From Pseudomonadota bacterium (lineage in GTDB: Bacteria > Chloroflexota > UBA5177 > JAJPKF01), in contig JAJPKF010000019.1 in NCBI GenBank assembly GCA_021323865.1, positions 130,747 through 194,746 of the forward strand: a DNA stretch of 64,000 nucleotides. Reading direction: 5' to 3'. Of this stretch, positions 1 through 32,087 are shown piece after piece (the first letter of the stretch is position 1; every line of letters begins with the position of its first letter). The translations under genes were made by a program, and so were the position numbers. Under the pieces are notes generated by a model, which made no database searches, was not told where the DNA came from, and was given only the letters and a program-made list of their open reading frames with translations.

Positions 1-154
1 CGATCATCGCGACCCTCAGTCCGGCGAGGTCACTCATGGTTTCCCCCTTCTTGCTTCGAAATTCACCATTGTGGTGCAATCGGCGTGCCTCCGTAAGAGC
101 GCCTCGTCGCCTCAGCTAAGCCGGTCACCCTCGGTCACTGGTTGCGCTGGTCGA

Positions 155-892
155 TCACGGCCAGCTCGTCTCCGTGACCGGTGTGACGATGACCTCCTGA
201 AGTGCCGAGTCACGCGGGAGACGGCAGGCTGTGATCACGACTTCGGCCACATTGGCGGGATCCTGAAGATTCTCCTCGAGGGGCATGGGTATCCCTAACT
301 CCTCAAACCGATCGAAGAAGTGTGTTCGCATTCCACCTGGAATGACGGTGGTCACTCGAATTCCGTGCTCTCGACCCTCGACACCCAAGCCTCGACTGAA
401 CCCCACGAGGCCCCACTTGGATGCATGGTAGGCGGAGGCGTTGGCCCACGCGCGGGTCGCCGCGGTGGAGGCGATGTTGACGATGTGTCCATAGCCCCTG
501 GCTCGCATGGTTGGAAGCACTGCGCGGCTCACTAAGAAGGGACCTCGTAGGTTCACCCCGATCACGGCATCCCACTGTTCCACGCTCATCTCTGCAACTG
601 CCAATGTGTGATCGATGGCAGCACAGCTCACCGCGATATCAACGCTGCCATGCTCCTCTAACGCCCGGTCGACGCAGGCGGCTACAGAATGTTCCTCCGC
701 CACGTTGCACTCCAGGGCTATGGCCGCGACTCCATCCGAGCGCAGGCTGGAAGCCACCTCTTCCGCCGCCTCTCTGCGAATGTCTAGGCACACCACGCGG
801 CTGCCGTGTGAGCCGAATGCTCGGGCGATCGCTGCGCCCAGCCCGCTGCCGGCACCCGTAATGAGCACGACCTTTTCAGAAAGGTCGATCAA
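155..892 (-). CDS. SDR family short-chain dehydrogenase/reductase (last gene of heptose/glycosyltransferase operon)
   Basis: 245 aa; N-terminal TGAGSGLG Rossmann motif, YxxxK (YHASK) catalytic motif; TTG start overlapping upstream GT stop by 4 nt. Confidence 0.8.
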   Translation of the reverse strand: MIDLSEKVVLITGAGSGLGAAIARAFGSHGSRVVCLDIRREAAEEVASSLRSDGVAAIALECNVAEEHSVAACVDRALEEHGSVDIAVSCAAIDHTLAVAEMSVEQWDAVIGVNLRGPFLVSRAVLPTMRARGYGHIVNIASTAATRAWANASAYHASKWGLVGFSRGLGVEGREHGIRVTTVIPGGMRTHFFDRFEELGIPMPLEENLQDPANVAEVVITACRLPRDSALQEVIVTPVTETSWP

Positions 893-2268
893 GCGGCGTC
901 CGTATCGGGATCACGATGTGGAATGCCGATGCCGACGCCTCGACTGGGAAGCGCATCCAGCAGGACGGGTGGGGCTCCGGCTCCCGCCCGTGCCCCAATC
1001 TCCATGATTTGCTTCCTCTCATAACTCTCGATGACCTCCATGTAGAGATTGAGGGTTCGAGTGGCGGTCGTCGACCACGTGAACTCTCGTTCGACACGAC
1101 GACGCCCCAAGTGCCCCATGCGGGCAGCACTCTCTGGGCACTCAAGCACGACGCGGAGCGCCTCGGACAGCGCCGTCGGCTCCTTCGGCGGAACCAACAG
1201 CCCGGTTTCGCCGTCTCGAATCGTGAAGGGGATGCCACCCACGTGGGATCCTATGAATGGCCGTCCGCACGCCATTGCCTCCAGAGGTGTTAGCCCGAAC
1301 GGCTCATACCAAGGGGTAGACACGATAACGTCGGCGGCCGCGTAAAACAACGGCAAGTCATCCGGTTGACGCTTTCCATAGAAGTGGACCAGATGCTGTA
1401 TGCCGAGTTCCGACGCGAGGTCTTGCAAGCGGCCGATCTCGGGCGTGAGAACCGGATCCGGCTCGGAAGACTCTCCGCCCACCACGATCACCATCGGATC
1501 CGCCGTGGTGGTCGCCCGTAGCAGCGCGGTCGCGCGCAGAATGTTGCCCACATCCTTGCGCGGCTGCATACGCCCGATGTACCCGATAATCGCTGCTTCA
1601 GAGGGGAGTCCCAGACTGCGGCGGGCTCCGGCGCGGTCGAGCGGACGGAAGCGCGACGTATCCACGGCCGAAGGGATGATGGTAATGTGATCGATGTCGG
1701 CGTCGTAGTCATGGATCAGTTCATCACGTTCTGATGGACATTGGGCGATCATTCGATCAACGTTTCGAACGATGGAACGCTCGACGGCTATGCGATCCCG
1801 CGGACTGGAGTCGGCGTGGCCCTGGTGGCGCCGTTTGGTAAGTCCCAGAGCATGAAAGATCTGAACCTTCGGGATCCGCAGCTGCGATGCGAGCTGTACA
1901 GTGACCCATCCTGACATCCAGAAGTTGCCGTGGATCACATCGTATACGCAGCCTTCTTGGGCCGCGAACCGGCGAATACCATCGAGAAAGGCAGGCATCA
2001 ACGGCCACAGGTCGTCCTTGGGGAGAAACGAGGGTGGGCCCGCTTCAATGCCGACCGCCCGCACCCCAGGCTCCATCTGGACAACGGGCTCCTGAACGTG
2101 GTCGTCCAGGCGAGAAAACACGTCGACGCGGCAGCCCAAACGGGCCAGATTGCGGCCGACCTGATCGACGTACACGTTCTGCCCCCCGGCATCCGTGCTT
2201 CCCAGGACCGCTAGGGGTGAGGCATGTTCACTGATCATGGCCACGCGTGGTCTGGAGTCAGGCAACAC
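889..2268 (-). CDS. GT4 (GT-B, Glycos_transf_1) glycosyltransferase, MshA-like N-terminus
   Basis: 459 aa ORF; 'RVAMISEHASPLAVLGSTDAGGQNVYV' resembles MshA-type GT4 N-terminus; C-terminal EX7E-like motif. True start may be GTG 2244 or ATG 2238. Confidence 0.75.
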   Translation of the reverse strand: MLPDSRPRVAMISEHASPLAVLGSTDAGGQNVYVDQVGRNLARLGCRVDVFSRLDDHVQEPVVQMEPGVRAVGIEAGPPSFLPKDDLWPLMPAFLDGIRRFAAQEGCVYDVIHGNFWMSGWVTVQLASQLRIPKVQIFHALGLTKRRHQGHADSSPRDRIAVERSIVRNVDRMIAQCPSERDELIHDYDADIDHITIIPSAVDTSRFRPLDRAGARRSLGLPSEAAIIGYIGRMQPRKDVGNILRATALLRATTTADPMVIVVGGESSEPDPVLTPEIGRLQDLASELGIQHLVHFYGKRQPDDLPLFYAAADVIVSTPWYEPFGLTPLEAMACGRPFIGSHVGGIPFTIRDGETGLLVPPKEPTALSEALRVVLECPESAARMGHLGRRRVEREFTWSTTATRTLNLYMEVIESYERKQIMEIGARAGAGAPPVLLDALPSRGVGIGIPHRDPDTDAA

Positions 2269-3273
2269 TTAAGGGGCTCCTCTCGTCCAACCGGCTGACG
2301 GCTGGGTCTGCACCTCTGGCTCGATCCATGACGGCCTCCCAATCACGGGTGAATCGAGCTATGCCGAAGCGCTCCTGAGCCAGGCGTCGTCCGTTCGCGC
2401 CAATGCGTCCTGCAAGACCGGGATCGTCCAGGAGTCTTTCCATCGACTCCCTGAGAACGGCGACATCGCAGGAGACGAATCCTGTCTCTCCATGGTCGAT
2501 AACCATCGGTAGCTCAGTCGTAGCGAGAGCCACAACAGGCATGCCGATGGTCAGGCCTTCTATGACCGCGAGCGGAAGGCTTGTGTAGCGCATGGGGCTG
2601 AACAGGAATCGGTAGCGTGCCACTAGGCGATGGAGATGGCGATATGGAACGTCGCCCAGCCCCCCCAGCGACTCGGTGCCCATGCCCGCTATGTCCAGTG
2701 GCACCTGTTCTCGCAACTTGAGGAAGAGATCGAATCCGGAAATCCGTGGTCGCCGCTCCATACCATTGGCCACCACGATGCCACGGGCTAGGTCCCCCGT
2801 ATACCTGGCTCTCGGGTCAATGGCGACGCTGTGCTCGATGACCGTGGTTGGAAGATCCCCCGAGTCCCACATGATGTCGTTGAAGTGGGTTACGTGCACC
2901 AGCACGTCCGGCCGCCGTGGGAGCGCCCGATCACGGTCCACCGCGGGATGCAACGTGTGCACCGCGTCCGGCTTCGGGGTGTTGTGCTCCAGGTAGATGG
3001 AGGGCAGCTCCTGCTGATGAGACGAAAGAATCTCGAACTGGTCATGGAAGAGGTTGCGGGGAGTTTGGAAGATGACGAGATCCAGGTCCAGATGGCGAAC
3101 CTCTTCCGCCGGCACCTCCCGAACGGTCTGTGGCAGGTCAAAGGTGGTTCCTCGTCCCAAATAGCCTTCAGGACGGTCCGGCTTTGTCGGGAGATACCAG
3201 TTGTGGTCGACTCGGGCGAGCGCATTGAGGTAGCTGCCGTGAATGTGCCAGATAAGAACATTCAGGCGCGGCA
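2258..3273 (-). CDS. GT-B glycosyltransferase (Glycos_transf_1 family)
   Basis: ORF track 2258..3607 but ATG (MPRLNVLIWHIHG...) at 3273 overlaps stop of upstream GT9 gene (3262); C-terminal 'LAVIEGLTIGMPVVALATTELPMVIDHGETGF' EX7E motif. Confidence 0.7.
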
Positions 3274-4416
3274 TACCGCTCTCCGTTCGTACGCGGCTCC
3301 AAGCACGGCCTCTGGAGCCCCGCGTTCGGTTCCCGACTCGTTCAAGAGCTCCCCTGCGGCCGTGACGATCTCGTCGATCGGCACCAGAGTCAGACATTCC
3401 TGATGGTATGGACAGACGCGCCGGTAACAGATGCGGCATGAGACGTCCTGGAACAACTGCCGGAACGGCACCATCCATGGAGACCACTGATGGGGAGGAT
3501 TGGTGAGCGCAAAGAGGGTCACGACCGGGGTGCCCACCGCAGCGCTCACGTGCGCGGGGCCGGTGTTGCTGCAAATCGTCAGATCGCAGGCCTCGATGAG
3601 GCCACACATGGTTGCGAAGTCAATCGTTCCAGTAAGGGAGACCGTACGGGAGCGGCGAGTACTCTTCAAGGAGTCTTGAATCGTTCTTACCAGAGGCGCC
3701 TCCGACTCGGTGCCCGTGAGAAAGACGGTCGCGTTGAAATCGCAAATCAAGCGGTCGACAATGGCGCCGAATCCTTCCGTTGGATAGGTGCGAGCCGGCA
3801 TCGAGCACCCGGGATGAACGACGATGCGCGGCCCGCCGGCAGCATGGGCGGAGAGGATCGTCGCCGAGCGATGATGCGCGATTTCCGGGACACGGAGCCG
3901 CAAATGCAGGTCGTCAGTTTGCATTCCTACCGATGCGACGAGCTCAATGCTCCGCATCACCTCATGTGGAAACTCGCCCGTGTAGTCGCCGTCGTGTTTC
4001 ACTCTCGTCGTGAGCAGCGAGCCGGGCCCTTCAACGGATGCGCCCAGACGAAGAGGGATGCCCGCGAGGTAGCAGAGATAGGCGGCGGCGACGCAGCTCT
4101 GACGGAAGGACGTGAAGATGATCGCGGCGTCGAATCCGGCCGACCTCAGCTCCTCAACCAGGTGCAGCTCTCTGGCCGGATCGCATTCCAGCTGGCTCCA
4201 CGGATCCATCCATGGAGCCTGGTACTCGATCACCTCGTCGATGTCGGGATTGAGGCGCCCAACCTGGGCCCCGACGGGACTGCACAGAAGGGTCAGGTGG
4301 GCTTGCGGAAGCGAATGTCGAACAGCTCGAATGGCCGGTGTCGTTACGAGCACATCGCCGAGATTGTCGAGGCGCACCAAGAGAACGCGGCTCAGCCCCA
4401 CCCATGCCGGATCCAA
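3262..4416 (-). CDS. GT9 family heptosyltransferase (ADP-heptose:acceptor heptosyltransferase)
   Basis: 384 aa; 'SRVLLVRLDNLGDVLVTTPAIRAV' N-terminus typical of GT9 (RfaF/RfaC-like); immediately downstream of hldE. Confidence 0.75.
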   Translation of the reverse strand: MDPAWVGLSRVLLVRLDNLGDVLVTTPAIRAVRHSLPQAHLTLLCSPVGAQVGRLNPDIDEVIEYQAPWMDPWSQLECDPARELHLVEELRSAGFDAAIIFTSFRQSCVAAAYLCYLAGIPLRLGASVEGPGSLLTTRVKHDGDYTGEFPHEVMRSIELVASVGMQTDDLHLRLRVPEIAHHRSATILSAHAAGGPRIVVHPGCSMPARTYPTEGFGAIVDRLICDFNATVFLTGTESEAPLVRTIQDSLKSTRRSRTVSLTGTIDFATMCGLIEACDLTICSNTGPAHVSAAVGTPVVTLFALTNPPHQWSPWMVPFRQLFQDVSCRICYRRVCPYHQECLTLVPIDEIVTAAGELLNESGTERGAPEAVLGAAYERRAVCRA

Positions 4417-5922
4417 TTAGGCCCTCATCTCGGCGGGTTCCCGTGGCGTTGCCGGTTCTGTGCCCAGCGAAAGTATCCGCTCGATCACCGCTGTGGTGCT
4501 GATTGTCCCGGAGAGTGGGACGATGTAAACGCGCCCCCCGATGTCCTCGACCGCTTGCGCTTCCGGAAGGAGCCGGCCCTCGTAGTCGCCTCCCTTCGCA
4601 TGCACATGCGGTCGGAGGGTTCGGATGATATCGGATGGTTCATCCTCGTCGAACACGATGACATGATCGACGGTCTCGAGAGCCGCGAGAAGAGCGGCCC
4701 GATGGTGCTCTGCATTGATGGGGCGGTTGCGGCCTTTCAGACGTCGCACACTAGCATCCGAGTTGACGCCGACGACTAGGATGTCTCCCAAAGCTTTGGC
4801 TGCGCGGAGAAATTCGACGTGCCCCGCGTGAAGGATGTCGAATACCCCGTTGGTGAAGACAATCGTCTTGCCGAGAGCCCGTTCGCGATCCAATACTGGG
4901 ATCAACTCTTCCAAACGCGGTTGCCGGTGCCGGTCGCTGAGGCTGGTCTGCTGAAGGAGCTCCTGCTGGCTGACGACCGCCGTCCCTGACTGACGAACAG
5001 CCAGACGGGCAGCTTCAATCGCGATCCGGGCGCCACTTCGAACGGGGGCCCCGACCGCTACGCTGAGCGCCAGGGCGGCAAGAAATGAGTCGCCGGCCCC
5101 CACATCGTGGGGATCCACAACCGGACCTGCCGGGATGTGGGCGATTTGCCCCGTGCGCTCCACCACCGTAACGCCGTCTGCCGCCCGCGTGATGGCTACG
5201 GCCTCGGCGTCCACGAGGGCCAGCATCCGTCGCCCGATCATTTCGACCGTCTCATCGGCGATTCGCTCGTGATCCGGTGCTCGTCGCTCGACCGCGGTGA
5301 ACGCCTCGAGATGGTTGGGTGTCATCACCGTGGCGCCGATGGAACGGCAGCGCCGAATATCCTTGGAATCGACGAACAGGGGCTTGGGTCTGGTGGACCG
5401 AGCGCGGCCGAGACGCTGGACGAGCGCATCGCTTACGGTTCCATATCCGTAGTCGGAGATGACCACAAGATCCACCGATCCGTAGAGATTGTCTACCGCA
5501 TCCAGCATCACCCTTTGTGACTCGACAGACCATTGGTCCCGCTCGCCTTCGTCGAACCTGACAACGTATTGACCATTGGCAAGGATGCGCAGCTTGTGGA
5601 TGGTTGGCGCGGTGGTGTCGATTACTCGGTGGCTGCATGAGATGCCACATCGATGAAGAAGAGACTCCATCGTTTGGCCGGGCTGGTCGTTTCCGCGGAT
5701 GAAGGGAAAGTGCACGTCCGCGCCCATGGCACGGAGATTGGCGGCGGTGTTGCCCGCGCCCCCCGGGCTGCTCTGCGACCCAGATCGCTGAACTACGGGT
5801 ACAGGACCTTCACTGCAGAGGCGCTGCGCCGATCCCTCCAAATAGGTGTCAAGCATCGCGTCGCCCAAGACGAGAACCCGGAGATCTTTGAACGACCGGA
5901 CGTAGTCGAGCAGGTCAGCCAC
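4417..5922 (-). CDS. hldE: bifunctional D-beta-D-heptose 7-phosphate kinase / D-beta-D-heptose 1-phosphate adenylyltransferase
   Basis: 501 aa; N-terminal PfkB carbohydrate kinase domain plus C-terminal cytidylyltransferase domain with 'TNGVFDILHAGHVEFL' motif; GTG start overlaps gmhB stop. Confidence 0.85.
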   Translation of the reverse strand: MADLLDYVRSFKDLRVLVLGDAMLDTYLEGSAQRLCSEGPVPVVQRSGSQSSPGGAGNTAANLRAMGADVHFPFIRGNDQPGQTMESLLHRCGISCSHRVIDTTAPTIHKLRILANGQYVVRFDEGERDQWSVESQRVMLDAVDNLYGSVDLVVISDYGYGTVSDALVQRLGRARSTRPKPLFVDSKDIRRCRSIGATVMTPNHLEAFTAVERRAPDHERIADETVEMIGRRMLALVDAEAVAITRAADGVTVVERTGQIAHIPAGPVVDPHDVGAGDSFLAALALSVAVGAPVRSGARIAIEAARLAVRQSGTAVVSQQELLQQTSLSDRHRQPRLEELIPVLDRERALGKTIVFTNGVFDILHAGHVEFLRAAKALGDILVVGVNSDASVRRLKGRNRPINAEHHRAALLAALETVDHVIVFDEDEPSDIIRTLRPHVHAKGGDYEGRLLPEAQAVEDIGGRVYIVPLSGTISTTAVIERILSLGTEPATPREPAEMRA

Positions 5923-6559
5923 CGGCCGCTCCTACCGGAACTTCACGTTGCGACCAGCGGCTCGGTTGATATTGCAGCTCTGTCTGCGGCCCAAGCCCTT
6001 CACAAAATCGGATCAAGCGAAGTCCGTGGAGGGTATCTCGCGCCACGAACTCGGGCCTCCGGTCGTTGACCATGGACTTCGACTCCGTTCCCAGATCCAC
6101 CAAAACCGTCCGGCAGCCGACCCGATTGCCGGCTTCGACATCATCGAGGATGTCTCCAATCAGCCAGGAAATGTCTAGGTCTAGGGAGAGGTCGCTGGCC
6201 GCCTGCAGGAGCATGCCGGGCTCCGGCTTCCGGCAACCGCAGTGGCGAGCGAGGCCGGGGACAACGCCATCAGGATGATGAGGGCAGAAGTAGATTCCTG
6301 CCAGGGTCACCCCTTCGTCGGCTAACCTCTTACCAAGCGATGCATGCATTCGGTCGAGATCCTCAGGGCTGAACAGCCCTCGGGCGATCCCCGACTGATT
6401 GGTGATGAGCACCAGCCGGAACCCGGCATTCTGGAGCAGGCGCAACTCAGCAGGAATGCCGGGGTAGATCTGTAGTTCGTCCGGTCGCGACGGGTAGTGG
6501 CGCGGCCGGACCAAGGTGCCGTCCCGATCCAGAAAAACCGCTCGCCATCGCCCGCTCAC
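5915..6559 (-). CDS. gmhB: D-glycero-D-manno-heptose 1,7-bisphosphate phosphatase (HAD family)
   Basis: 214 aa; 'VFLDRDGTL' HAD motif I, 'LVLITNQSG', 'IGD' motifs; GTGA overlap with gmhA stop. Confidence 0.8.
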   Translation of the reverse strand: MSGRWRAVFLDRDGTLVRPRHYPSRPDELQIYPGIPAELRLLQNAGFRLVLITNQSGIARGLFSPEDLDRMHASLGKRLADEGVTLAGIYFCPHHPDGVVPGLARHCGCRKPEPGMLLQAASDLSLDLDISWLIGDILDDVEAGNRVGCRTVLVDLGTESKSMVNDRRPEFVARDTLHGLRLIRFCEGLGPQTELQYQPSRWSQREVPVGAAGG

Positions 6560-7218
6560 GTGCCGGCGCTCCTTGTCGATTCAGTCAGCTGCGCCTCAAC
6601 CACCTCACACACCACATGGGTGATCACGGCATGGATCTCCTGGATGCGACACGTGTCGACACTGCCGGCCGCAACAACCAGGTCGCAATGATCTCCAAGA
6701 GCGCAAAAGGGTGTGCCAAGAATGCCGATGGTCCGTATGTCCATCCTCCGGGCACTCTCTGCGGCGACCAGCAGGTTCCGTGACTGACCGCTGGTAGAGA
6801 AGAGGACAAGCAGGTCACCCGGCCGCCCCTGTGCTGCGAGTTGACGGGCAAAGACTTCCTGGTAGCCATAGTCGTTGGCCAGCGCCGTCAGGACGGTGGA
6901 GTCGGCAGTGAGGGCAATGGCGGCATATGGCTCTCGCTCGAAACGGAACCGGCCCACCAGCTCTGCCGCGAAGTGCTGCGCCTCGGCGGCGCTGCCGCCG
7001 TTACCGGCCGTAAAGACCCTGTTGCCGCGGTCGAGCGTTTCCGCAACCAAATCGGCGGCCCGTTCGACCATCGTCGGGTTGTTGGCCATCGTGGAAAGGG
7101 CATCGCCAAGCTCGTTACGCGCACGCTGAAGAGAGTCGATGACTGAGTCGACCCTGGTGAGCGGCTTCTCGAACGGCAGAGTGCTCAGAGGGCAGCCTCC
7201 CCGCGTCCTCATGGTCAC
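6556..7218 (-). CDS. gmhA: phosphoheptose isomerase (sedoheptulose-7-phosphate isomerase), SIS domain
   Basis: 220 aa; 'FTAGNGGSAAEAQHFAAELVGRF' SIS/GmhA signature; first gene of heptose operon. Confidence 0.8.
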   Translation of the reverse strand: MTMRTRGGCPLSTLPFEKPLTRVDSVIDSLQRARNELGDALSTMANNPTMVERAADLVAETLDRGNRVFTAGNGGSAAEAQHFAAELVGRFRFEREPYAAIALTADSTVLTALANDYGYQEVFARQLAAQGRPGDLLVLFSTSGQSRNLLVAAESARRMDIRTIGILGTPFCALGDHCDLVVAAGSVDTCRIQEIHAVITHVVCEVVEAQLTESTRSAGT

Positions 7219-7391: not shown

Positions 7392-8819
7392 CTAGGGAGC
7401 CGCCTTCACACTGTTGACGAGGCGCGTGAGTGAGTCCTTGGCGTCGCCAAACAGCATGGCTGTCTTGGGGTCAAGGTACAGCGGATTGTCGATTCCCGCG
7501 AAGCCCGGACGCATGCTGCGCTTCAGAACGATGATGTTTCGGGCCTGATCCACATTCAGAATGGGCATGCCGTAGATGGGACTGCTGCGGTCGGTGCGGG
7601 CGGCGGGATTGGTCACGTCGTTGGCTCCCACCACCAAGGCCACCTCGCTGTGAGCGAATTCGCCATTGATCTGGTCCATATCGAAGAGCTGCGAATAGGC
7701 AACGTCGGCCTCGGCCAGCAGCACGTTCATGTGGCCCGGCATCCGACCGGCGACGGGATGAATGGCATATTTCACACTGACGTCGCGCTTCTCCAAGAGC
7801 TCACCCAGCTCGTGCACCTGGTGCTGCGCCTGGGCAACCGCCAGTCCGTAGCCTGGGACAACGATGACCTGGTCGGCGTAGATCATGAGGGTCGCCGCGT
7901 CGTCCACCGATATCTCTCTCACTGTGCCGGAGGCGGCCAGGGCGGCTCCTCCACCTGAGGGAGCGGCGCCAAATGCACCGAAGAGCACATTGGTCAACGG
8001 CCGGTTCATGGCCTTGGCCATCAGTTGGGTCAGGAGCGTTCCGGAAGCGCCGACCAAGGCGCCGGAAACGATAAGCAGCTCGTTGGAGAGCACGAAGCCC
8101 GTGAGGGCCGCGGCAAGGCCGGTGAGAGAGTTCATCAGTGAAATGACGACGGGCATATCGGCGCCGCCGATAGGGATGACCAAGAGCAGGCCCAGCAGAA
8201 TGGCCGCCAGGATGAGCAGAGCGAAGATCGCGTAGCTGCTCGTAACGGCCGCTGCCAGAACCCCCAGGACCACAATCGCGATGACCAATGTAGCCACGAT
8301 GAACTGCTGAAACGGAAGCCGGATCGCGCCCCCGCCCACGATTTCCTGCAGCTTGGCGAAGGCCACCATACTACCGGCGAAGGAAACGCAGCCGATGGCC
8401 GAGCCCAGCATGATGGTCGCGAGCTGACCGCCGCTTCCTCCCCGGAGGTGCGCCTCTGTAAGGTGGACCAGCTCGAGGGCCGACACGGCGGCCGCAGCGC
8501 CGCCTCCCATGCCGTTAAAGATGGCCACCATTTGCGGCATGGCGGTCATCAGGACCCGCCGGGCGCTGATGACGCCGGCCGTTCCTCCGAGGGCCATGCC
8601 CAGGAAGATGATGATCCAGTTGACGGCGTGCGGATGAATGCCTGAAGGCAGAACACCGGAGCCGGCGGGCGAGACCAAGGTGGCGACCACTGCCAGCGTC
8701 ATCCCTGCCGCCGCCACTCGATTGCCAAGACGCGCCGTGACTGGTGATCCAAGCTGGCGAAGGCCAAAGATGAACACCACCGCCGCGATGAGATAGGCAA
8801 TGCCGATGGCGGTGTTCAC
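7392..8819 (-). CDS. pntB: NAD(P) transhydrogenase subunit beta
   Basis: 475 aa polytopic membrane N-terminus plus C-terminal NADP(H)-binding domain; GTGA overlap with pntAB. Confidence 0.9.
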   Translation of the reverse strand: MNTAIGIAYLIAAVVFIFGLRQLGSPVTARLGNRVAAAGMTLAVVATLVSPAGSGVLPSGIHPHAVNWIIIFLGMALGGTAGVISARRVLMTAMPQMVAIFNGMGGGAAAAVSALELVHLTEAHLRGGSGGQLATIMLGSAIGCVSFAGSMVAFAKLQEIVGGGAIRLPFQQFIVATLVIAIVVLGVLAAAVTSSYAIFALLILAAILLGLLLVIPIGGADMPVVISLMNSLTGLAAALTGFVLSNELLIVSGALVGASGTLLTQLMAKAMNRPLTNVLFGAFGAAPSGGGAALAASGTVREISVDDAATLMIYADQVIVVPGYGLAVAQAQHQVHELGELLEKRDVSVKYAIHPVAGRMPGHMNVLLAEADVAYSQLFDMDQINGEFAHSEVALVVGANDVTNPAARTDRSSPIYGMPILNVDQARNIIVLKRSMRPGFAGIDNPLYLDPKTAMLFGDAKDSLTRLVNSVKAAP

Positions 8820-9112
8820 TCTTTCCGCTGGCTCCTGGGCTTGAACATCTGGAGCATACGATCGGTGACGACGAAGCCACCGAATACATTAAGGCTGCCG
8901 AGGACAACGGCAACAAAGGCCAGTACGTCGGTTGCCGGGTTGCGGGCCTGGAATGCCACGAGGATGGCGCCCACCAGGACCACTCCGTGGATGGCGTTGG
9001 TGCCCGACATCAGCGGGGTATGCAGCATTGAAGGCACGCGGGCGATGACTTCGAATCCCACCAGAATGGCGAGCACAAAGACGTAGGCGCCGAGAATGAT
9101 CGAGCTGTTCAT
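8816..9112 (-). CDS. pntAB: NAD(P) transhydrogenase subunit alpha part 2 (membrane)
   Basis: 98 aa hydrophobic protein between pntAA and pntB; ATG start. Confidence 0.85.
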   Translation of the reverse strand: MNSSIILGAYVFVLAILVGFEVIARVPSMLHTPLMSGTNAIHGVVLVGAILVAFQARNPATDVLAFVAVVLGSLNVFGGFVVTDRMLQMFKPRSQRKE

Positions 9113-9124
9113 GACTTCATTCCG

Positions 9125-10216
9125 CTACTTGAGGATCTGTCCGTCGTGAGTCACGCAGGCGCCTTGGATAATCTCGTCGTCGAAGTCCAGGTGCAGATTT
9201 CCCTCCTGAACCAGCAACGACACGAAGCTGCTTACGTTTCGAGACAGCATCTGGCTGGCTTGGGTGGCGGCCTGGGCCGGTAGGTTGCGCGGACCCACGA
9301 TCGTTACTCCATGGGCAACCACGGTCTCGCCGGCTTTGGTCAGCTCGCAATTGCCGCCCTGCTCCGCCGCCAGGTCGACGATGACGGCGCCCGGCTTCAT
9401 GCGCTGGATCATTTCCTCACTGATGAGAATTGGGGCAGGCTTTCCGGGAATCAGCGCCGTGGTGATGATCGCGTCCACCGTCGCGAGGTGCTCTCCGATC
9501 GCCTCCTGCTCACGCCGCAGGAACTCCTCGCCTACATCGCGGGCGTATCCTCCCTCGGTGCCTTCGACCTGAAGCTCCGGCGGCATCTCGACGAACGTAG
9601 CCCCCACGCTCTGCACCTGCTCCCGCACCTCGGGTCGGGTATCGAAGCCGAAGGTCATCGCTCCCAGCCGTTTGGCCGTCGCCAGCGCTTGGAGACCGGC
9701 GACGCCGGCCCCCAGCACCAGCACCCGACAGGGAGGCTGGGTGCCGGCGGCCGTAATCAGCATGGGGAACATGCGTTTGGATGCCTCAGCCGCCAGCAGA
9801 ACCGCCCGGTAGCCGGCGATGGTGCTCATGGACGAGAGCGCGTCCATGGACTGAGCGCGGGTAATGCGCGGAATTGACTCGAGGGCGAATGAGGTCACCC
9901 GGTGATTGGCCAGCTGTGCGAGCAGCTCCCGATTCCGAAGAGGATCGAGGAAGCCGATGAGGATGGAAGCTTCGGGGAGCGCTTGAATCTCCGACTCAGA
10001 AGGAGGTCGGGCGACCACCGCGATTGCGGTAGTTTGCGCGAGCTGGGATGCGGGCACGATATTTGCTCCCGCCGATGAGTACGCGTCGTCAGGAAAGTTC
10101 GCTTGGAAGCCCGCGCCTACCTCGACCCGTACGGAGACTCCAATCTTGGTCAGGCGTGGCACATCGTCGGGAACCAATGCCACTCGCGTCTCATCGGGCT
10201 GGGTTTCTCGGCGCAC
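9125..10216 (-). CDS. pntAA: NAD(P) transhydrogenase subunit alpha part 1 (AlaDH/PNT domain)
   Basis: 363 aa; AlaDH/PNT N- and C-domains, 'VLVLGAGVAGLQA' NAD-binding loop. Confidence 0.85.
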   Translation of the reverse strand: MRRETQPDETRVALVPDDVPRLTKIGVSVRVEVGAGFQANFPDDAYSSAGANIVPASQLAQTTAIAVVARPPSESEIQALPEASILIGFLDPLRNRELLAQLANHRVTSFALESIPRITRAQSMDALSSMSTIAGYRAVLLAAEASKRMFPMLITAAGTQPPCRVLVLGAGVAGLQALATAKRLGAMTFGFDTRPEVREQVQSVGATFVEMPPELQVEGTEGGYARDVGEEFLRREQEAIGEHLATVDAIITTALIPGKPAPILISEEMIQRMKPGAVIVDLAAEQGGNCELTKAGETVVAHGVTIVGPRNLPAQAATQASQMLSRNVSSFVSLLVQEGNLHLDFDDEIIQGACVTHDGQILK

Positions 10217-12180: not shown

Positions 12181-13623
12181 CTAGTAGCCGGTACCGTTCC
12201 CGGGGGCCTGGACCGGCCCGTCTGCCCCACACTGCAGTCTGGGCAGGAGCAATGGCTTGGCCGCGCGCTGATGGAAGTTAAACATGTGCGACAGGCTGTG
12301 CACCGATCGATCGTAGGTCGTCAGGTGCGGAAGCTTGAAGGTGTCCTCAACAAACTTGAGAACTGAACGGAAGTCGTACTGCGTATGGTCTATGGTGTGC
12401 TGCTTGGCGTAAGGAGAAATTACGATTGTCGGAACCCGCGGACCAAAGAGATAGTTGGTGTGCTGCGGCGTCGGAACATGATCATAAAAGCCCCCGAAGT
12501 CATCCCATGTGAGCACGATGGCGGTGCTCTTCCAGTAGGGAGACCGCATGACGGCGTTGATCTGCTTGGCGACCCAGTTCTGCCCGACACACATGCTGGC
12601 TGGAGGATGATCGCTCTTCGCCAGATCCGCGGTAAGCCAGCTCACGCTCGGCAGCTTGTGATGCGCGACGTCTTCATGGAACTGCGTCGGGAGTGGGACG
12701 TTGGTCTTCCATTGGTTCGAGTAGCGGATATGCCGGATCTCGTCGTAGGTGGACCAGATGTAGCCGAAGGTTCCGGGCGCGGGAGCATAGTACTTCCAGC
12801 TCAAGTGAGCCCGATTGGCCTCGTCGGCGATGGTCTTCTTGTTCCAGCAGGGAACCGTCCACCCGGTCTTGCCGTTGACGTAGGTCTCGACCTTGGTGCT
12901 TCGGGCGGCGTCACACCCCCAGGATCTGAAGACGGTCCGTTTCATGACCGGGTTGTCGATGGTGTTGAAGGCCGATCCCGCGATGGTGACGAGATGATTG
13001 GGGAAGCTCGAGCCCAGCACGGTGGAGAAAAAGTGGTCCGCCAGCGCGAAGTGGCGCGCATACGCCCAATAGTCGGGAATCTCCGCCGCATCGTACTGAG
13101 AGTCGGCCATGTCCTTACCGTTTTGGATGGCGTTGACCACTTGATAGAACTTGTCCATCCTGCCGCCGTCGACGGCGTTCAGTGCCGAGTTCCCGCCGTG
13201 TCCCAGGTCTTGGGGAAGATGATCGGGAGTGAGGCCCATCTTGATGAGCTTGGCGGCGACATGAGCGTACTGAGTTCCGTCGGCTCCGGGAAACCGTCCG
13301 AACAAGTTGTCGAAACTGTGATTCTCGCGAACGATGATCACGATGTGCTTGATCGGAGACCGGAAGGGGGCAACACCGCCGCCGGCCCGTGCCGGCTCAG
13401 CCAGTACCCCTCGCACGCCGTGGCGCGAGCCCTTGTTGCTTGGCGACTTCGAGTGAGATGTCGCAGACGGATGACTGGTCTTGTGCTTGAGCACTCCGCT
13501 GGATTGCGGCCTGGGCGCCGTCAGCAGAATTCCGCCGGCCACCATAAGGCCCATGGCTACCAACGCGGGCACAATGGCCCATCTCTTGAGCAACGAAGTC
13601 AACTCGGTTCTCCCTATCCCCAC
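12181..13623 (-). CDS. phosphoesterase family protein (phospholipase C / AcpA acid phosphatase-like), secreted
   Basis: 480 aa; '[13 protein letters not shown]', '[12 protein letters not shown]' motifs of PF04185 phosphoesterase family; N-terminal signal/TM. Confidence 0.8.
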
Positions 13624-18225: not shown

Positions 18226-19980
18226 CTAGCTCTGCCTCGCCGGCCACGGGATGCGTGGAATGCCCCTCTGATACGTTCCGGGTGGTGAAAGGTCGTGCCG
18301 TATGGGTGGCTCCTCAGGCAAGCCGCGAAGCCCCTGAGACAGGCGATCGCTTTGGGCAATGATGTAGTTCGCTGTGCGGGCCGCCAGCGATTGGATCGTC
18401 AGACCCGGGTTGGCCGACCCCTGGGTCGGTAGGATGCTGCCGTCGCAGCAAAAGAGATTTGGAATATCGTGGCTGCATCCGAATCGGTCCACAACCGAGG
18501 TGTCGGGATCGTCACCCATGCGCGCTCCACCGATAAGATGCGCGTACCGCGCCTCCTGGACGACTTCTTCCGCGCCCGCCGCGGACATGATTTCCATGAC
18601 CTTCCGCTTACCGAACTCAATGAGCTTTTTGTCGTTCTCCTTAAGTCCATAGGTAACCTTTGCGACTGGCAGGCCATGACCGTCCCGCTCCTCCGCAATG
18701 GTCACCCGGTTGTCGGCCCACGGGAGGAGCTCGCCAAGTAGGCCGAGCGTCGCCCAATGGTTGTAGTCCATCATTACCTTTCGGAGTCCCCAGCCCCAGG
18801 CTCCCTTGGCCACCATCATTTGCTTGGCAAATGCGATGGGCAGCGGCCCGACCGTCTGCACGGCGAAACCGCGGGCAAAGTCTCGTCGTGGATCGGTCTC
18901 GTAGAACTCCTCGGTGAGGGCGTGCGCAGGCGGCCCCTTGTAGAGCCGGATGAGCTGCGGAAAACGGCCGAGAATGACATTTCCGGCCTGCACCATCAGG
19001 TACCGACCGACGGTATCACTGCTGTTTGCCAGCCCCTTCTCGTGACCCGGGGATGCTGAATTGAGGAGAAGCCGGGGCGTCTCTATGGCATACCCGGAGA
19101 TTACGACCAGCTTGCACCGCTGGTGGCGCTCGTTTCCGGCCGCGTCGAAGTAGGTTACGCCCGAGACCAGGCCATCCGGTCGGAGGTTGACCCGAGCGGC
19201 CATAGAACGATCGCGGATCTCGGCTCCGCAGGCCACGGCATCGGGCACATGACTGTACAGGGTGCTCTGCTTCGCTCCGACCTTGCAGCCTTGGATACAG
19301 AATCCCCGGTAGATACAGTGCTGGCGGTCTCCGTAGGAGCCGGAAAGAATAGCGACCGGTCCGCCGGCCACGACCGGAATCCCGAGCTTGGTACACCCCT
19401 TAATCAACACATCACCCACGCCGGCACTGGGATGCGGGCCATATGGGTAGCTGTGGGGGTATCCCCAGGGAAAGCGAGCAGGTCCCGCGACGGGCATCTC
19501 TCGCTCCAGCATCTCGTAGTAAGGGCGGATGACGTCGTACCGGAACGGCCAATCGACGCCGACACCGTCCAGTTCATAGATGTGAAAGTCCGAAGGATGA
19601 AATCGAGGCGCGAAAGCGGCCCAATGGACTGAGCCACCACCAACTCCGTGTCCGCTGTTGTTTTCCCCCAGTGTGATGGGGTTGGCGCCGGCAGTGATGC
19701 GAAGGTCGTTCCAGTACAGCTTGTGAGAGCCTGCTTCGTCACTGACCCAGTCGCGCTCGACATCCCAGAAGGGGCCTGACTCAATGCCGACGACGCGTAG
19801 GCCTGCCCGCGAGAGCCTCTGGAGAAGGACGCCACCGGCCGAGCCGACCCCGACGATGCACACATCCACCTCTTCGCTCTCGCGATAGTGCCGCATGGGC
19901 GTCTTCAATCTCTGGACGGGCCCCAGCAGGTGATCGGATGATCGAGGCGGATCGAACCGGCCGAAGATGGGCTCGCGCAT
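18226..19980 (-). CDS. GMC family FAD-dependent oxidoreductase (gluconate 2-dehydrogenase flavoprotein-like)
   Basis: ATG at 19980 overlaps upstream stop (ATGA); 'VCIVGVGSAGG' FAD-binding GxGxxG, GMC C-terminal 'GGARMGDDP…', 'GSANPGLTIQSLA'. Confidence 0.8.
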   Translation of the reverse strand: MREPIFGRFDPPRSSDHLLGPVQRLKTPMRHYRESEEVDVCIVGVGSAGGVLLQRLSRAGLRVVGIESGPFWDVERDWVSDEAGSHKLYWNDLRITAGANPITLGENNSGHGVGGGSVHWAAFAPRFHPSDFHIYELDGVGVDWPFRYDVIRPYYEMLEREMPVAGPARFPWGYPHSYPYGPHPSAGVGDVLIKGCTKLGIPVVAGGPVAILSGSYGDRQHCIYRGFCIQGCKVGAKQSTLYSHVPDAVACGAEIRDRSMAARVNLRPDGLVSGVTYFDAAGNERHQRCKLVVISGYAIETPRLLLNSASPGHEKGLANSSDTVGRYLMVQAGNVILGRFPQLIRLYKGPPAHALTEEFYETDPRRDFARGFAVQTVGPLPIAFAKQMMVAKGAWGWGLRKVMMDYNHWATLGLLGELLPWADNRVTIAEERDGHGLPVAKVTYGLKENDKKLIEFGKRKVMEIMSAAGAEEVVQEARYAHLIGGARMGDDPDTSVVDRFGCSHDIPNLFCCDGSILPTQGSANPGLTIQSLAARTANYIIAQSDRLSQGLRGLPEEPPIRHDLSPPGTYQRGIPRIPWPARQS

Positions 19981-20756
19981 CAGTGCGTCCCCGACTGTCC
20001 TGGTGGGGCGTGGTGAGGACGACCGCCTCCGACCGGCCGGTATCCGCCGGATCGGGCCCCAGGGGGCGGTTCCCATTCGTAGCGCTGCTCGTCTTTCTCC
20101 CAGGGCTCCGCCTTGCCGTTCTCGAGGCGCACATATCCCCGCGGGTACGCGGGACCGCCAAAGCCGATCTCGTCCCACGACCAGGGGTGTGCATAGTAGG
20201 CGGCCGCGATGTCCTGGACCAGCAGCAGCCAGAAGCGATCTACGGGCATGCGCTTCCAGATGTTGCCGCCGGCGGGGGGATGGGCGTCGTGGATTGTCTC
20301 CAGGACCTCCTCCTGCTGGGCCATTTCCAATTCTGTGAACCGCTTGGCATGCAGATGAACACTGATCTCGTCGATCGCCTGGATCCCCAATCGAAAGGCA
20401 TCGCCGTCGGCCGGCATGTCTTCGTATCGGTACCCGTCAGACATTCCGGAGTAGAGCCGATTGTCGAGATAGTTCAGGACGGGAATGCGACGCTCGGGGT
20501 CGCGATCATCCTGGGGGAGGATCCGGTTGCAAATCGCCTGCATGGTCGCTGCTTCCCCACCGTCAAAGAACCGGATAGCCGGCACCTGCTCCACGCGATC
20601 CATCACCGTCTGTCGCGTCGCGGCGTCCCAGAAGGCTCGCTGATCGAGTGTGCTGAAGCCGGGATAGTACCCTGGTTGTCGGCGTGGGTCCAAGGGACTT
20701 CCGCTTTGCGGATCCACGGGAAGGAGATGGTCTGCCGCCGGGTTCTGCGACGTCAC
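19980..20756 (-). CDS. gluconate 2-dehydrogenase subunit 3 family protein (small subunit of GMC dehydrogenase complex)
   Basis: 258 aa; family-typical position immediately upstream of GMC flavoprotein with translational coupling; sequence features consistent with PF13618. Confidence 0.6.
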   Translation of the reverse strand: MTSQNPAADHLLPVDPQSGSPLDPRRQPGYYPGFSTLDQRAFWDAATRQTVMDRVEQVPAIRFFDGGEAATMQAICNRILPQDDRDPERRIPVLNYLDNRLYSGMSDGYRYEDMPADGDAFRLGIQAIDEISVHLHAKRFTELEMAQQEEVLETIHDAHPPAGGNIWKRMPVDRFWLLLVQDIAAAYYAHPWSWDEIGFGGPAYPRGYVRLENGKAEPWEKDEQRYEWEPPPGARSGGYRPVGGGRPHHAPPGQSGTH

Positions 20757-21751
20757 GTGTGCGCCGGTCGCCGAAGTAGCGCGGCCAGCAGCCCAAGGAA
20801 CCCGCTCGCGGAGAGTAGCATCGGTGCGAACAAGGGAGGGCCATAGATGAGGTTGTAGAGCGGCAAACGGAGGCCTCCAGGCTTCCTCAAGACACCCCGA
20901 GCATGGAAGAAGGTACCCATGGCTCCGTCACTGAGAGCTAGGGCTGAGATCACTGGCAGGAGGGTCGTGGCCAGCCTTCGACTCCAGATTGATCCGATGC
21001 CCGTGAGCGTCAGCAGCGGCGCGATCAGGAGAGGACTTGATTGGAGCCAGCGATATTGGAAGCCGTTCTGATAGTGCGAGTACGCGGCTTCGCAGCCGCT
21101 GAAGAAGGCGGAGATTCCGGCTACGGCGGCAATGTTGCGCTGGAAGCGGCCCTCGCGAACGTGATGCTCGAAGATGAGCCCTTCACGTGTGAGACGGGGC
21201 AACGCCGCTCGGAGGCCTCGGCCCTGGCGGAGACCGATGTCGGGAACCCGATCGGCAATCGGTTCGAGAGCCGCTGGGTCATTTTCGCGTCTCAGGAATG
21301 AGGCAATGAGCCCCAGGTACCCACTCAGCCCGAACAGGAGTGGCGCAAAGACGGGCGGCCCCATGATCATGTTGTTGACCGGTACCCGCCAGCCGCCAGG
21401 CTTGCGGGCGATGCCGCGCACATGGAAGATGAAGCCGACGACGCCATCCACCAGCACGAGCAGCGAGATCAATGGCAGTAATCGCCGCGCGATCAGTCGG
21501 TTGAATGCCGCCGCGACGCCGGTGGCCGTGAGGCCGGCGCTCAGGATGATGGGCGTATACATGATCTGCTGGCCATAGCTGCCGCGGTAATGCTCGTAGG
21601 CGACCTCTCCGCCGCTCATGAGGCTGGCCAGTGCGGCAACCACTGCGAGGCTTCGCTGAAATCGTCCCTCACGGATATGCTGCGTGATCAGCGTTTCTTC
21701 GTGGAGCGCTTGCCTGAGGAGGCGTCGACGCTGGGCAGCCCGGCTAGCCAA
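20753..21751 (-). CDS. hypothetical polytopic membrane protein with internal tandem duplication
   Basis: 332 aa; two ~160-aa repeats each starting '(Q/E)H(I/V)REGRFQR(S/N)…AAVAG…' and ending 'RKPGG(W/L)R(V/L)P…GPP(V/L)FAP(L/M)L…'; 4-nt overlap with downstream gene. Confidence 0.5.
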   Translation of the reverse strand: MASRAAQRRRLLRQALHEETLITQHIREGRFQRSLAVVAALASLMSGGEVAYEHYRGSYGQQIMYTPIILSAGLTATGVAAAFNRLIARRLLPLISLLVLVDGVVGFIFHVRGIARKPGGWRVPVNNMIMGPPVFAPLLFGLSGYLGLIASFLRRENDPAALEPIADRVPDIGLRQGRGLRAALPRLTREGLIFEHHVREGRFQRNIAAVAGISAFFSGCEAAYSHYQNGFQYRWLQSSPLLIAPLLTLTGIGSIWSRRLATTLLPVISALALSDGAMGTFFHARGVLRKPGGLRLPLYNLIYGPPLFAPMLLSASGFLGLLAALLRRPAHT

Positions 21752-23543: not shown

Positions 23544-23642
23544 GGGTCACCTCAAAGTGTGGGATCGGGATGGTGGGATGCCGTCAGACGGCAAAGTTCA
23601 TGCCGCACTATGTCGAGGAGCGATATATTGTCGAGCGGGCCC

Positions 23643-24236
23643 TCACTCGAAGAGGCGTGCCTTGAGATGACTGGTGATTAAGTGGTTCAGAACGAGATGG
23701 GCGTCTTCCACATAGCCGTAATCGGTGCTGTTCACGACGACGCACAGATCGGACAGCTTGCGTACGGTACCGCCATCGCAGCCCAGCAAGCTGATGGTAG
23801 TGATGGCCATGCGGCGTGCGAGGGAAACCGCCTGCACGATGTTGGGCGAGTTTCCGCTCACGGAAATGGCGATGAGGATATCTCCCGCATTGGCGATGTT
23901 GCGGAGCTGCTCCGCAAAAACGTTGGCATAGCTGGTGTCATTGGCCCACGCGGTCATAAGCGCCACGTTGTCCGTGAGGGAGACCACCCGGAATCGCTTC
24001 GCCCACACATCACCCGTCCCGAGCATCACCGTCTTGGCCAGATCACACGCCATGTGTGAGGCGGTGCTGGCGCTTCCTCCGTTCCCCACCAGAAACACCT
24101 GGCTGCCGCGTGTGTATGCGGCTCGGAGACATTCGACGGCCGCATCGAGATCGCCCAGAGGCAGGCTCTCGAGGACTGACCGAAGTCCATGTATGTAGTC
24201 AAGGGCATCGACTCGGGAGGTGGGGGTTAAGGCCAC
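23643..24236 (-). CDS. gmhA: SIS-domain phosphoheptose isomerase paralog
   Basis: 'FLVGNGGSASTASHMACDLAK' SIS/GmhA signature; ORF extends to GTG 24293 but GTG 24236 gives typical length (197 aa) and 10-nt overlap with hddA stop. Confidence 0.65.
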   Translation of the reverse strand: MALTPTSRVDALDYIHGLRSVLESLPLGDLDAAVECLRAAYTRGSQVFLVGNGGSASTASHMACDLAKTVMLGTGDVWAKRFRVVSLTDNVALMTAWANDTSYANVFAEQLRNIANAGDILIAISVSGNSPNIVQAVSLARRMAITTISLLGCDGGTVRKLSDLCVVVNSTDYGYVEDAHLVLNHLITSHLKARLFE

Positions 24237-26336: not shown

Positions 26337-26675
26337 TCCGGCAACTCCTTAAGAAAAAACTTCAGAGACAGGCGTCCCTGAAGTGCAAGGAGCTACAAAC
26401 CTGGCGTCTGACACCTAAGTCTAGCAGGAATAGAGGGTGGGAGCAGAAAGCAATCAGGGGCCGCGAGTGAGTGTTTCACCTGGCACTTGCCCGCGAAGCG
26501 CCGGCTTCAGTCTCAGCGGGCCATCCGATCGGCTCGGTTGGGCTCCGTCATCGCGTCCGTCCGGTCCGAGATGAAACGTAATCTGCCCGCCCCCGACGCA
26601 GCGGTTGGTCAGGGACCCTGACATGTGATAAGTAAAGAAGATGCGGCCTTTCGGGGCCGCTTATCTTTATTCCAG

Positions 26676-30455: not shown

Positions 30456-30530
30456 GCCTTGCTCTCTCCGCTCGCCTGAAAAGTCAAACTCCTTCCGGCC
30501 GGGATGATCGACCTGAGCCGGCGGTCCCCG

Positions 30531-30983
30531 CTACTCCCCCTGCATGCGCCGGATCATCTCCTTGAGACGGCCGATCTCCCCCTCGTATTGCTCGCGCAGC
30601 TCTTCGATCCTGTGCTCGTATTCAGCCTGCGCGTCGCGCATTTGTTCACGCATATTGAGGATGACCTCGACTCCGGCGAGATTCACGCCCAGCTCCTCGA
30701 CCAACCGACGAATCTGCAGCAGCCGGTCGATGTCGTCTGGCGAAAAATACCGGATGTCTCCCTTGCCCCGGTAGGGCTCGATCAGACCGAGGCGCTCGTA
30801 ATGGCGGATGGTCTGCTGGTGAACGCTGACCAGTTCGGCAGCCACGCTGATGGTGTAGTGGCGGCGCTGCCGCAGGCCGTGACCGCGACGCCGGCTGCTG
30901 CGGAGGGCCCCATGCATCTCCTGACCGGCCGCAAGCCGCTCTTGTTCGGCCTCGGTCAGCTCGTCATCGCGATAGGTCACCAT
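30531..30983 (-). CDS. hspR: heat-shock repressor HspR (MerR family)
   Basis: ATG at 30983 (MVTYRDD…); 'YTISVAAELVSVHQQTIRHYERLGLIEP' MerR HTH; position downstream of dnaJ. Confidence 0.85.
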   Translation of the reverse strand: MVTYRDDELTEAEQERLAAGQEMHGALRSSRRRGHGLRQRRHYTISVAAELVSVHQQTIRHYERLGLIEPYRGKGDIRYFSPDDIDRLLQIRRLVEELGVNLAGVEVILNMREQMRDAQAEYEHRIEELREQYEGEIGRLKEMIRRMQGE

Positions 30984-31002
30984 TGCCGGTCCTCCATCCT
31001 CA

Positions 31003-31956: not shown

Positions 31957-32087
31957 TGCTATGTACCGCTCGCCATTCGCGTAGCTGCTGCCGGATGCCA
32001 CTTCGAGAGGGCCGTTCCCGCCGAGGGAGGGTGATCACTTTGCAATATCCCGGGCCCGTGGAACAACGAATAGCGGAGCTGCAAGGC

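Follow-up and report, generated by a model that had tools for sequence, protein, structure and literature searches.

A phylum-wide ADP-heptose and family-9 glycosyltransferase operon of Chloroflexota, predicted to serve an acceptor other than lipid A

The 64-kb window analysed here (64,000 nucleotides of contig JAJPKF010000019.1, positions 130,747 to 194,746 of the forward strand) carries an operon of seven genes that joins the synthesis of ADP-heptose to a family-9 glycosyltransferase (GT9), two further glycosyltransferases and a short-chain dehydrogenase (SDR). On balance, the operon is read as the Chloroflexota version of a heptosylation line, which in this Chloroflexota metagenome-assembled genome (MAG) would act on an acceptor other than lipid A. 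Judged from the genomes sampled, the operon is phylum-wide in Chloroflexota, and the window holds a reduced form of it; both points are new with respect to the preliminary description of this DNA. ADP-heptose together with GT9 enzymes is usually seen as the lipopolysaccharide (LPS) machinery of Gram-negative bacteria, and a review presents the occurrence of ADP-heptose in Gram-positives as a special case linked to antibiotics of Streptomyces (PMC10221265). Here the machinery is an operon with conserved synteny in a phylum that reportedly has no LPS and whose envelope architecture is disputed (PMC8871954).

Operon organization

Seven open reading frames (ORFs) on the minus strand together fill positions 155–7218 of the window. 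In the order of transcription they are:

gmhA, 6556–7218, minus strand: sedoheptulose-7-phosphate isomerase; 220 residues from the GTG at 7218, with an ATG at 7212
gmhB, 5915–6559, minus strand: heptose 1,7-bisphosphate 7-phosphatase of the HAD-IIIA type; 214 residues
hldE, 4417–5922, minus strand: bifunctional heptose-7-phosphate kinase and heptose-1-phosphate adenylyltransferase; 501 residues
GT9a, 3262–4416, minus strand: family-9 glycosyltransferase, predicted ADP-heptose transferase; 384 residues
GTB338, 2258–3274, minus strand: GT4-fold glycosyltransferase with an unusual His-rich N-domain; 338 residues from the ATG at 3274
GT4, 889–2268, minus strand: retaining glycosyltransferase resembling sucrose-phosphate synthase (SPS) and MshA; 459 residues
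SDR, 155–892, minus strand: classical short-chain dehydrogenase, final gene of the operon; 245 residues

Their Pfam matches, in the same order, are SIS_2, HAD/Hydrolase_like, PfkB with CTP_transf_like, Glyco_transf_9, Glycos_transf_1, Glyco_transf_4 with Glycos_transf_1, and adh_short. The gmhA and gmhB genes share a 4-nt GTGA and GT4 and SDR a 4-nt TTGA. The overlap is 8 nt between gmhB and hldE, 13 nt between GT9a and GTB338 and 11 nt between GTB338 and GT4, and the TAA of hldE abuts the TTG start of GT9a with zero gap. These junctions constitute translational coupling. The Pfam and NCBIfam matches and the ORF positions bear out the gene identities, coordinates and operon structure given in the preliminary description. 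Its tight coupling likewise stands, and its GTGA/ATGA overlaps "throughout" are only approximate, the overlaps ranging from 4 to 13 nt and one junction being abutting. The longest ORF of GTB338 begins with a GTG at 3607, a start that was dropped for the ATG at 3274 based on the junction and on an independent gene call. This gene call, made on an identical Logan contig (L001), yields the same lengths of 214, 501, 384, 338, 459 and 245 residues for the genes from gmhB to SDR. No transmembrane segments are predicted in the cluster proteins.

Conservation across Chloroflexota

Relatives were taken from a scan of one genome per species, which yielded 80 loci with 51–60% identity to the window GT9. 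Conservation was counted by tblastn of the window proteins on these loci, and most of the incomplete loci are cut by contig ends. Nearly all 80 belong to Ktedonobacteria, Thermomicrobia (Sphaerobacter, Nitrolancea and Thermalbibacter), Chloroflexia, Anaerolineae and Ardenticatenaceae. Carriers of the operon with a complete genome include Ktedonosporobacter rubrisoli (NZ_CP035758.1), Thermosporothrix hazakensis and Thermalbibacter longus. All seven genes are present in 35 loci, which span these same five groups, the cultured and Gram-positive Ktedonobacteria among them, and 34 of the 35 have the window order. Since the same order recurs in 34 independent genomes, a chance association of the genes is ruled out.

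The usual gene order is gmhA-gmhB-hldE-GT9a-GT9b-GT9c-GTB338-GT4-GT2-SDR-hddA-like-gmhA2, and it is tightly coupled in locus L019. Among the 64 loci that cover the GT9 stretch, 50 contain GT9a, GT9b and GT9c and 11 contain GT9a and GT9c; GT9a alone occurs in one other locus. The window copy has a single GT9, no GT2, and its HddA-like kinase and gmhA2 genes are 16 kb away, and it is thus a rare reduced form.

The commonest neighbour of the operon is a PucR-type regulator (~30 loci). Clustering of all ORFs in the 80 loci revealed no conserved transporter, flippase, ligase or initiating phosphoglycosyltransferase. In Ktedonobacteria (L012, L013, L061 and others), PAP2 and DAGK/YegS genes lie divergently 4–5 kb upstream of GT9a, and six of these loci also carry a pyridine-nucleotide disulphide oxidoreductase gene upstream. 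In the window, the pntAB transhydrogenase genes (three ORFs, 7392–10216, minus strand) are located directly upstream of gmhA and are separated from it by 173 nt. None of the related loci shows this arrangement, and that side is usually occupied there by a PucR-type regulator.

Gene order conserved across several Chloroflexota classes is atypical for natural-product clusters, and no polyketide synthase, non-ribosomal peptide synthetase, aminotransferase, tailoring or resistance genes are linked to the operon. Both observations argue against a role in secondary metabolism, with heptose being attached to a natural product as happens in the septacidin and hygromycin B pathways of Streptomyces. These pathways are the established cases of Gram-positive bacteria using ADP-heptose (PMC10221265), and Ktedonobacteria are rich in secondary metabolism (PMC6497799); this explanation is nonetheless the least probable of those weighed here.

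Host phylum

The cluster had been described as residing in an actinobacterial-like genome. The best named matches of ClpB are found in Chloroflexota MAGs with 86%, 72% and 70% identity. A database search with the GT9 gives 1831 relatives at E ≤ 1e-10; of the best 120, those that carry a name all belong to Chloroflexota, as do the named homologs of GTB338. The host is therefore a Chloroflexota MAG, to which ClpB and all of the cluster proteins point. The two markers cited for an actinobacterium do not hold: the presumed pgsA/pimA pair comprises a PIP-synthase-like gene and a generic GT4 gene, both under equivalog cut-offs, and the dnaK-grpE-dnaJ-hspR-clpB cluster, from which the hspR content was taken, is no argument for Actinobacteria. 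This heat-shock cluster is located at 27819–34558 on the minus strand, and its HspR-like MerR regulator (30531–31052) scores 94.6, just under the HspR cut-off of 105.

The earlier proposal of a non-LPS acceptor for the heptose loses its original host grounds and gains indirect ones. The literature describes Chloroflexi as having no LPS and an envelope whose nature is under debate (PMC8871954; see also PMC2615216), and the cluster occurs in Ktedonobacteria, which are treated as Gram-positive (PMC6497799). The proposal thus survives on the reports of Chloroflexota without LPS.

Synthesis of ADP-heptose

GmhA matches SIS_2 with 98 bits and TIGR00441 with 166.5 bits, under the equivalog cut-off of 209; GmhA models are nonetheless its top NCBIfam matches. 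The protein retains the GNGGSA, STSG and QEIH motifs, and orthologs are found in 65 of the 80 loci. Conversion of sedoheptulose-7-phosphate to D-glycero-D-manno-heptose-7-phosphate is strongly supported as its predicted reaction. The best NCBIfam name for GmhB is the beta-type model NF006506 (160.6 bits against a cut-off of 178), and TIGR01656 and TIGR01662 are matched above their cut-offs. Its orthologs, 54–67% identical, occur in 64 loci. HldE contains both the PfkB and the CTP_transf_like domains, as the preliminary description had expected of profile searches against Pfam. The adenylyltransferase domain exceeds the cut-off of TIGR02199 (190.2 against 181.5), and the full-length model NF008454 gives 372 bits, under its cut-off of 521. 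As most operon proteins fall under the NCBIfam equivalog cut-offs, they are divergent members of their families.

A tblastn search with E. coli HldD, the 6-epimerase, found no counterpart in the window and a single weak peripheral match of 25% identity across the 80 loci. The SDR was considered as a substitute for HldD and rejected, having no significant similarity to it (E = 1.4). Because no HldD is linked, the donor is probably the D,D form of ADP-heptose, as far as gene content tells. The pathway, previously called complete, is so for ADP-D,D-heptose and lacks HldD for the L,D form.

The HddA-like kinase and GmhA2

Two accessory genes that follow the SDR gene in related loci are displaced in the window:

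HddA-like GHMP sugar kinase, 24227–25228, minus strand: displaced accessory gene; 333 residues
gmhA2, 23643–24293, minus strand: second, divergent GmhA-like SIS isomerase, displaced accessory gene; at most 216 residues

The best PDB matches of the kinase are the heptose kinases 3k85, 4usk and 4n3o (1e-39 to 1e-33), and its score with NF049969 (145 bits) is far under the cut-off of 600. It directly follows the SDR in ~28 related loci, where gmhA2 adjoins it; in the window, the pair occupies 23643–25228. GmhA2 matches SIS_2, scores 100.6 bits with TIGR00441 against the cut-off of 209, and retains the core motifs except that E is changed to D and QE to ED. No HddC-type gene is seen in the cluster in any locus, and HldE is the sole linked nucleotidyltransferase. 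Given a kinase closest to heptose kinases and no additional nucleotidyltransferase, this branch could supply a heptose phosphate.

Downstream of the displaced pair, the minus-strand stretch 18226–25228 continues with a pyruvate-oxidase-like thiamine pyrophosphate enzyme (21744–23543), an unannotated membrane protein (20753–21751), a Gluconate_2-dh3 subunit (19980–20756) and a GMC oxidoreductase (18226–20178). These genes may constitute a module for sugar oxidation that has newly become linked to the HddA-like/gmhA2 pair. In four loci from Anaerolineae and Chloroflexaceae MAGs (L005, L026, L063 and L069), hldE (~40% identity) is found at the far end of the operon, after the HddA-like kinase in three of them and directly after the SDR in L026. 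The sole gmhA-type gene detected in L063 and L069 is a weak gmhA2-like match upstream. Since HldE and the HddA-like kinase coexist in one operon, the two are probably not redundant.

GT9 glycosyltransferases

The window GT9 matches PF01075 with 94.5 bits (cut-off 22), and this assignment, on which the preliminary description had staked its interpretation, is secure. The protein scores under the equivalog cut-offs of WaaC, WaaF and WaaQ (71 against 185, 90 against 135 and 103.5 against 170, respectively), as do all three of GT9a, GT9b and GT9c of L019. The AlphaFold2 model of GT9a, with a predicted local distance difference test (pLDDT) score of 81, has as its top Foldseek matches the Veillonella GT9 3tov, followed by WaaF (1psw) and WaaC (2h1h). 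Sequence identity to the E. coli GT9 enzymes is 21–24%. In GT9a and GT9b, Asn replaces the Asp of the N-D-S/T-G motif, an Asp that is present in WaaF and 3tov. The N-domains of GT9a and GT9b are net acidic, those of E. coli WaaC, WaaF, WaaQ, WaaU and WaaG are basic, and GT9c is net basic. In the same fold search, the bacterial GT9 proteins are followed by chains of plant chloroplast NDH-PSI supercomplexes (9grx_1, 7wff_a and 7f9o_6), which points to a GT9-like fold in one NDH subunit, as judged with the predicted model.

In a rough neighbour-joining tree with only four reference sequences, all from E. coli, GT9a, GT9b and GT9c form three clades, GT9a and GT9b are sisters, the window GT9 falls within the GT9a clade, and E. 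coli WaaC, WaaF, WaaQ and WaaU fall outside. As each clade extends across the sampled Chloroflexota lineages, the tree suggests that the GT9 triplication is older than the divergence of the Chloroflexota classes.

The scores under all three LPS heptosyltransferase cut-offs and the absence of HldD bear on a genuine LPS inner core, made by a diderm host with lipid A genes elsewhere in its genome. The gene families are classical for such a function, debate continues over the envelope of some Chloroflexi (PMC8871954), and the analysis covers only 64 kb plus 7 kb of the genome. However, the 64-kb window contains no lpx, kds, lpt or bam genes, the same operon is found in Gram-positive Ktedonobacteria (PMC6497799), and Chloroflexi are reported to be devoid of LPS (PMC8871954). 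A genuine LPS core is consequently regarded as highly improbable.

The C-lobes of GT9a and GT9b contain a CxxC-x4-C-x5-C motif (C327, C330, C335 and C341 in GT9a), which E. coli WaaC, WaaF, WaaQ and WaaU lack. The motif is common in other GT9 enzymes and is not used as support here. It is nevertheless reminiscent of the iron finger of TibC, which lies at a roughly similar position (Cys339, 342, 358 and 370 of 406 residues), and TibC uses ADP-D,D-heptose (PMC4358343). Cytoplasmic O-heptosylation of a secreted or wall protein, such as an S-layer or cell-wall protein, in the manner of TibC and Aah would also agree with the solubility of all operon enzymes and with the wall of T. roseum, which is dominated by heavily modified protein (PMC2615216). 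The cysteine spacing differs from that of TibC, however, and no candidate substrate gene is linked. The alignment with the canonical GT9 N-lobe begins at residue 9, leaving no room for the TibC beta-barrel domain. TibC is outside the top 50 structural matches, among which 3tov, WaaF and WaaC are canonical, and was not found by the PDB sequence search, so that a TibC-like protein heptosyltransferase is unsupported by either sequence or fold. Protein heptosylation is accordingly thought decidedly unlikely.

GTB338, GT4 and the SDR

GTB338 is the most conserved protein of the operon and weakly resembles the glucosylsucrose synthase tll1591. GT4 scores 318 bits with the MshA model TIGR03449 (cut-off 462.5) and 115.6 with the SPS model (cut-off 576). 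Its PDB matches are the SPS 6kih (1e-74), MshA 3c48 (1.5e-73) and the lipid-acting PimB' (1e-17). K84, H139 and R159 of GT4 are invariant in 55 orthologs and align with K78, H133 and R154 of MshA, which are reported to be among its ligand residues. The SDR matches adh_short with 184 bits, has FabG-like and 3-hydroxybutyrate-dehydrogenase-like PDB neighbours, and is linked to the operon in 55 of the 80 loci.

Acceptor and product

In the proposed mechanism, the single GT9 would transfer a heptose, and the two GT4-fold enzymes would add hexoses from nucleoside diphosphate sugars to give a short oligosaccharide. As no cluster protein has a predicted transmembrane segment, assembly would be cytoplasmic or take place on the inner side of the membrane. 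The acceptor is predicted not to be lipid A. Tentatively preferred is a small sugar or cyclitol that carries a phosphate and would receive its first glycosyl residue from the SPS/MshA-like GT4. Such a primer could come from the HddA-like kinase and GmhA2 branch, or could be an inositol phosphate, and the product built on it would remain soluble or be handed on. The choice appears to be favoured by several sequence features: the likeness of GT4 to SPS and MshA, its invariant Lys, His and Arg, the HddA-like kinase, the acidic N-domains of GT9a and GT9b, and the resemblance of GTB338 to tll1591. Relative to the ancestral operon of three GT9 and six transferases in all, the product of this genome would be truncated, with one heptose and no GT2 step.

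A glycolipid or lipoglycan resembling the LPS core is a possible, if somewhat doubtful, alternative, only slightly less probable than the phosphorylated primer. Here the peripheral GT9 and GT4 enzymes would work on an anchor that is a glycolipid, phosphatidylinositol or a diol lipid rather than lipid A, and an unlinked transporter would flip the product. Up to three GT9 together with GT4 and GT2 mirror the E. coli waa locus, itself annotated without a linked lipid A-core exporter; GT9c is net basic; and the PIP-synthase-like gene of the window indicates that the host probably makes inositol lipids. Yet the acidic N-domains of GT9a and GT9b are unlike those of WaaC, WaaF and WaaQ, GT4 is far nearer to SPS and MshA than to PimB', and none of the genes conserved across classes serves lipid synthesis or export.

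Several points weigh against the preferred interpretation of a heptosylation line with a non-lipid-A acceptor, or against the phosphosugar primer in particular. The PAP2 and DAGK/YegS lipid-kinase genes upstream of the operon in 9–10 Ktedonobacteria loci favour a lipid acceptor and count for the glycolipid. Two GT4 positions aligned to phosphate ligands of MshA are changed (Y110 to F and T134 to A). The structural neighbours of GTB338 include lipid-linked and soluble-acceptor enzymes alike, so that its fold does not discriminate between acceptors. The GT9 family is not known to use a soluble acceptor, and its named equivalog families, like its annotated solved structures, are those of LPS enzymes. 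The majority of the biosynthetic proteins score under their NCBIfam equivalog cut-offs, and the view of lipid A genes extends over 64 kb plus 7 kb of the genome. No heptose is reported from Chloroflexota in the literature searched. Related bacterial autotransporter heptosyltransferases (BAHT) act on proteins (PMC4358343).

Neighbouring genes and other features of the window

The gene downstream of the SDR extends past the window edge:

DJ-1/PfpI family gene, 1–79, minus strand: start of the gene; downstream neighbour

It is complete in L001, with 197 residues and 162 bits in TIGR01382, above the cut-off. Beyond the window edge, that contig shows the SDR, the DJ-1/PfpI gene and then a convergent topoisomerase IB gene, which places the operon end at the SDR or one gene further. 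A DJ-1/PfpI gene follows the SDR in just 2 related loci and is probably outside the heptose system.

A second set of genes lies at 50530–62911. The PIP-synthase-like CDP-alcohol transferase (165 bits, cut-off 180) adjoins a GT4 gene (50530–52236). Also present are a DUF4012 protein (53186–55252), a CAAX-protease-like membrane protein, a PQQ beta-propeller protein, two more GT4 genes (58470–60991) and a 620-residue protein without a family match. This region might be a second locus for envelope lipids or glycans.

Two paralogous PF04185 phosphoesterase genes of the phospholipase C/acid phosphatase type are found on the minus strand (12181–13623 and 36185–37513). The minus-strand gene at 46767–47726 is selD, which encodes selenide, water dikinase (338 bits, cut-off 125), and indicates that this Chloroflexota MAG uses selenium. 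A plus-strand gene at 26625–27608 encodes a protein with a match to the arrestin C-terminal domain (PF02752, 44 bits). Neither Rfam families nor tRNA genes were found when the 64-kb window was scanned for them.

Implications

The operon points to an undescribed heptose-containing component of the cell. The predicted molecule is a glycan with D,D-heptose, made by Chloroflexota that include the cultured, Gram-positive Ktedonobacteria, and the operon offers a genetic handle for finding it. Within the searched library, no relevant paper connects Chloroflexi, Chloroflexota or genera of this phylum with heptose or with heptosyltransferases, and the searched literature contains no description of this cluster. 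As related in a commentary, a 2024 study found enzymes of nucleotide-activated heptose synthesis to be widespread across kingdoms (PMC11461863); to the extent of that account, the biosynthetic half alone is less surprising.

Annotations as "LPS heptosyltransferase" in Chloroflexota genomes should not be taken as evidence of an outer membrane. Soil Chloroflexota would also be an unrecognised source of ADP-heptose, an innate-immune agonist. On a broader and rather unlikely interpretation, the operon builds a heptose oligosaccharide across the phylum as a vertically inherited counterpart of the LPS inner core, kept after or without lipid A on another anchor. If true, this would bear on whether the Chloroflexota ancestor had an outer membrane.

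Comparison with known systems

The LPS inner-core pathway (GmhA, HldE, GmhB and HldD, with WaaC, WaaF, WaaQ and WaaG) uses the same three biosynthetic families and the GT9 fold. Up to three GT9 paralogs beside GT4 enzymes, with all transferases soluble, are common to both systems. In contrast, Chloroflexota are reported to be without lipid A, and their operon has no linked HldD. The Chloroflexota GT9 proteins are 21–24% identical to E. coli WaaC, WaaF and WaaQ, under the cut-offs, and, in the rough tree, outside the four E. coli references. GT9a and GT9b further differ in their acidic N-domains, the Asn in place of the motif Asp and the Cys4 motif, and the partners are an SPS/MshA-like GT4, GTB338, an SDR and an HddA-like kinase.

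The BAHT enzymes TibC and Aah are likewise cytoplasmic and soluble, and TibC combines the use of ADP-D,D-heptose with a four-cysteine metal finger in the C-lobe. Unlike TibC, the Chloroflexota GT9a has no N-terminal beta-barrel and has another cysteine spacing, and no autotransporter or obvious substrate gene is linked.

The GDP-D-glycero-alpha-D-manno-heptose pathway (GmhA, HddA, GmhB and HddC) serves the S-layer glycan of Aneurinibacillus and the capsules of Campylobacter and Burkholderia. The HddA-like GHMP kinase and the second GmhA resemble its components, and it provides a precedent for heptose in a non-LPS glycan of a monoderm. However, no HddC is linked here, the kinase scores 145 against 600, and the main route is that of HldE and ADP.

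SPS with glucosylsucrose synthase (tll1590 and tll1591 of Thermosynechococcus) and MshA offer a different parallel. GT4 is about equally similar to SPS and MshA (~1e-74), both of which glycosylate a small phosphorylated acceptor. GTB338, located beside GT4, weakly matches tll1591, which neighbours the SPS tll1590 and acts by extending sucrose (PMC9909042). Nonetheless, GT4 is under both cut-offs, two of its phosphate-ligand positions are changed, it sits in a heptose operon, and no dedicated phosphatase is linked except GmhB.

The septacidin and hygromycin B pathways of Streptomyces share with the Chloroflexota operon the production of ADP-heptose in an LPS-free bacterium. Their clusters are strain-specific and contain tailoring enzymes, whereas the Chloroflexota operon is phylum-wide and pairs heptose synthesis with glycosyltransferases only.

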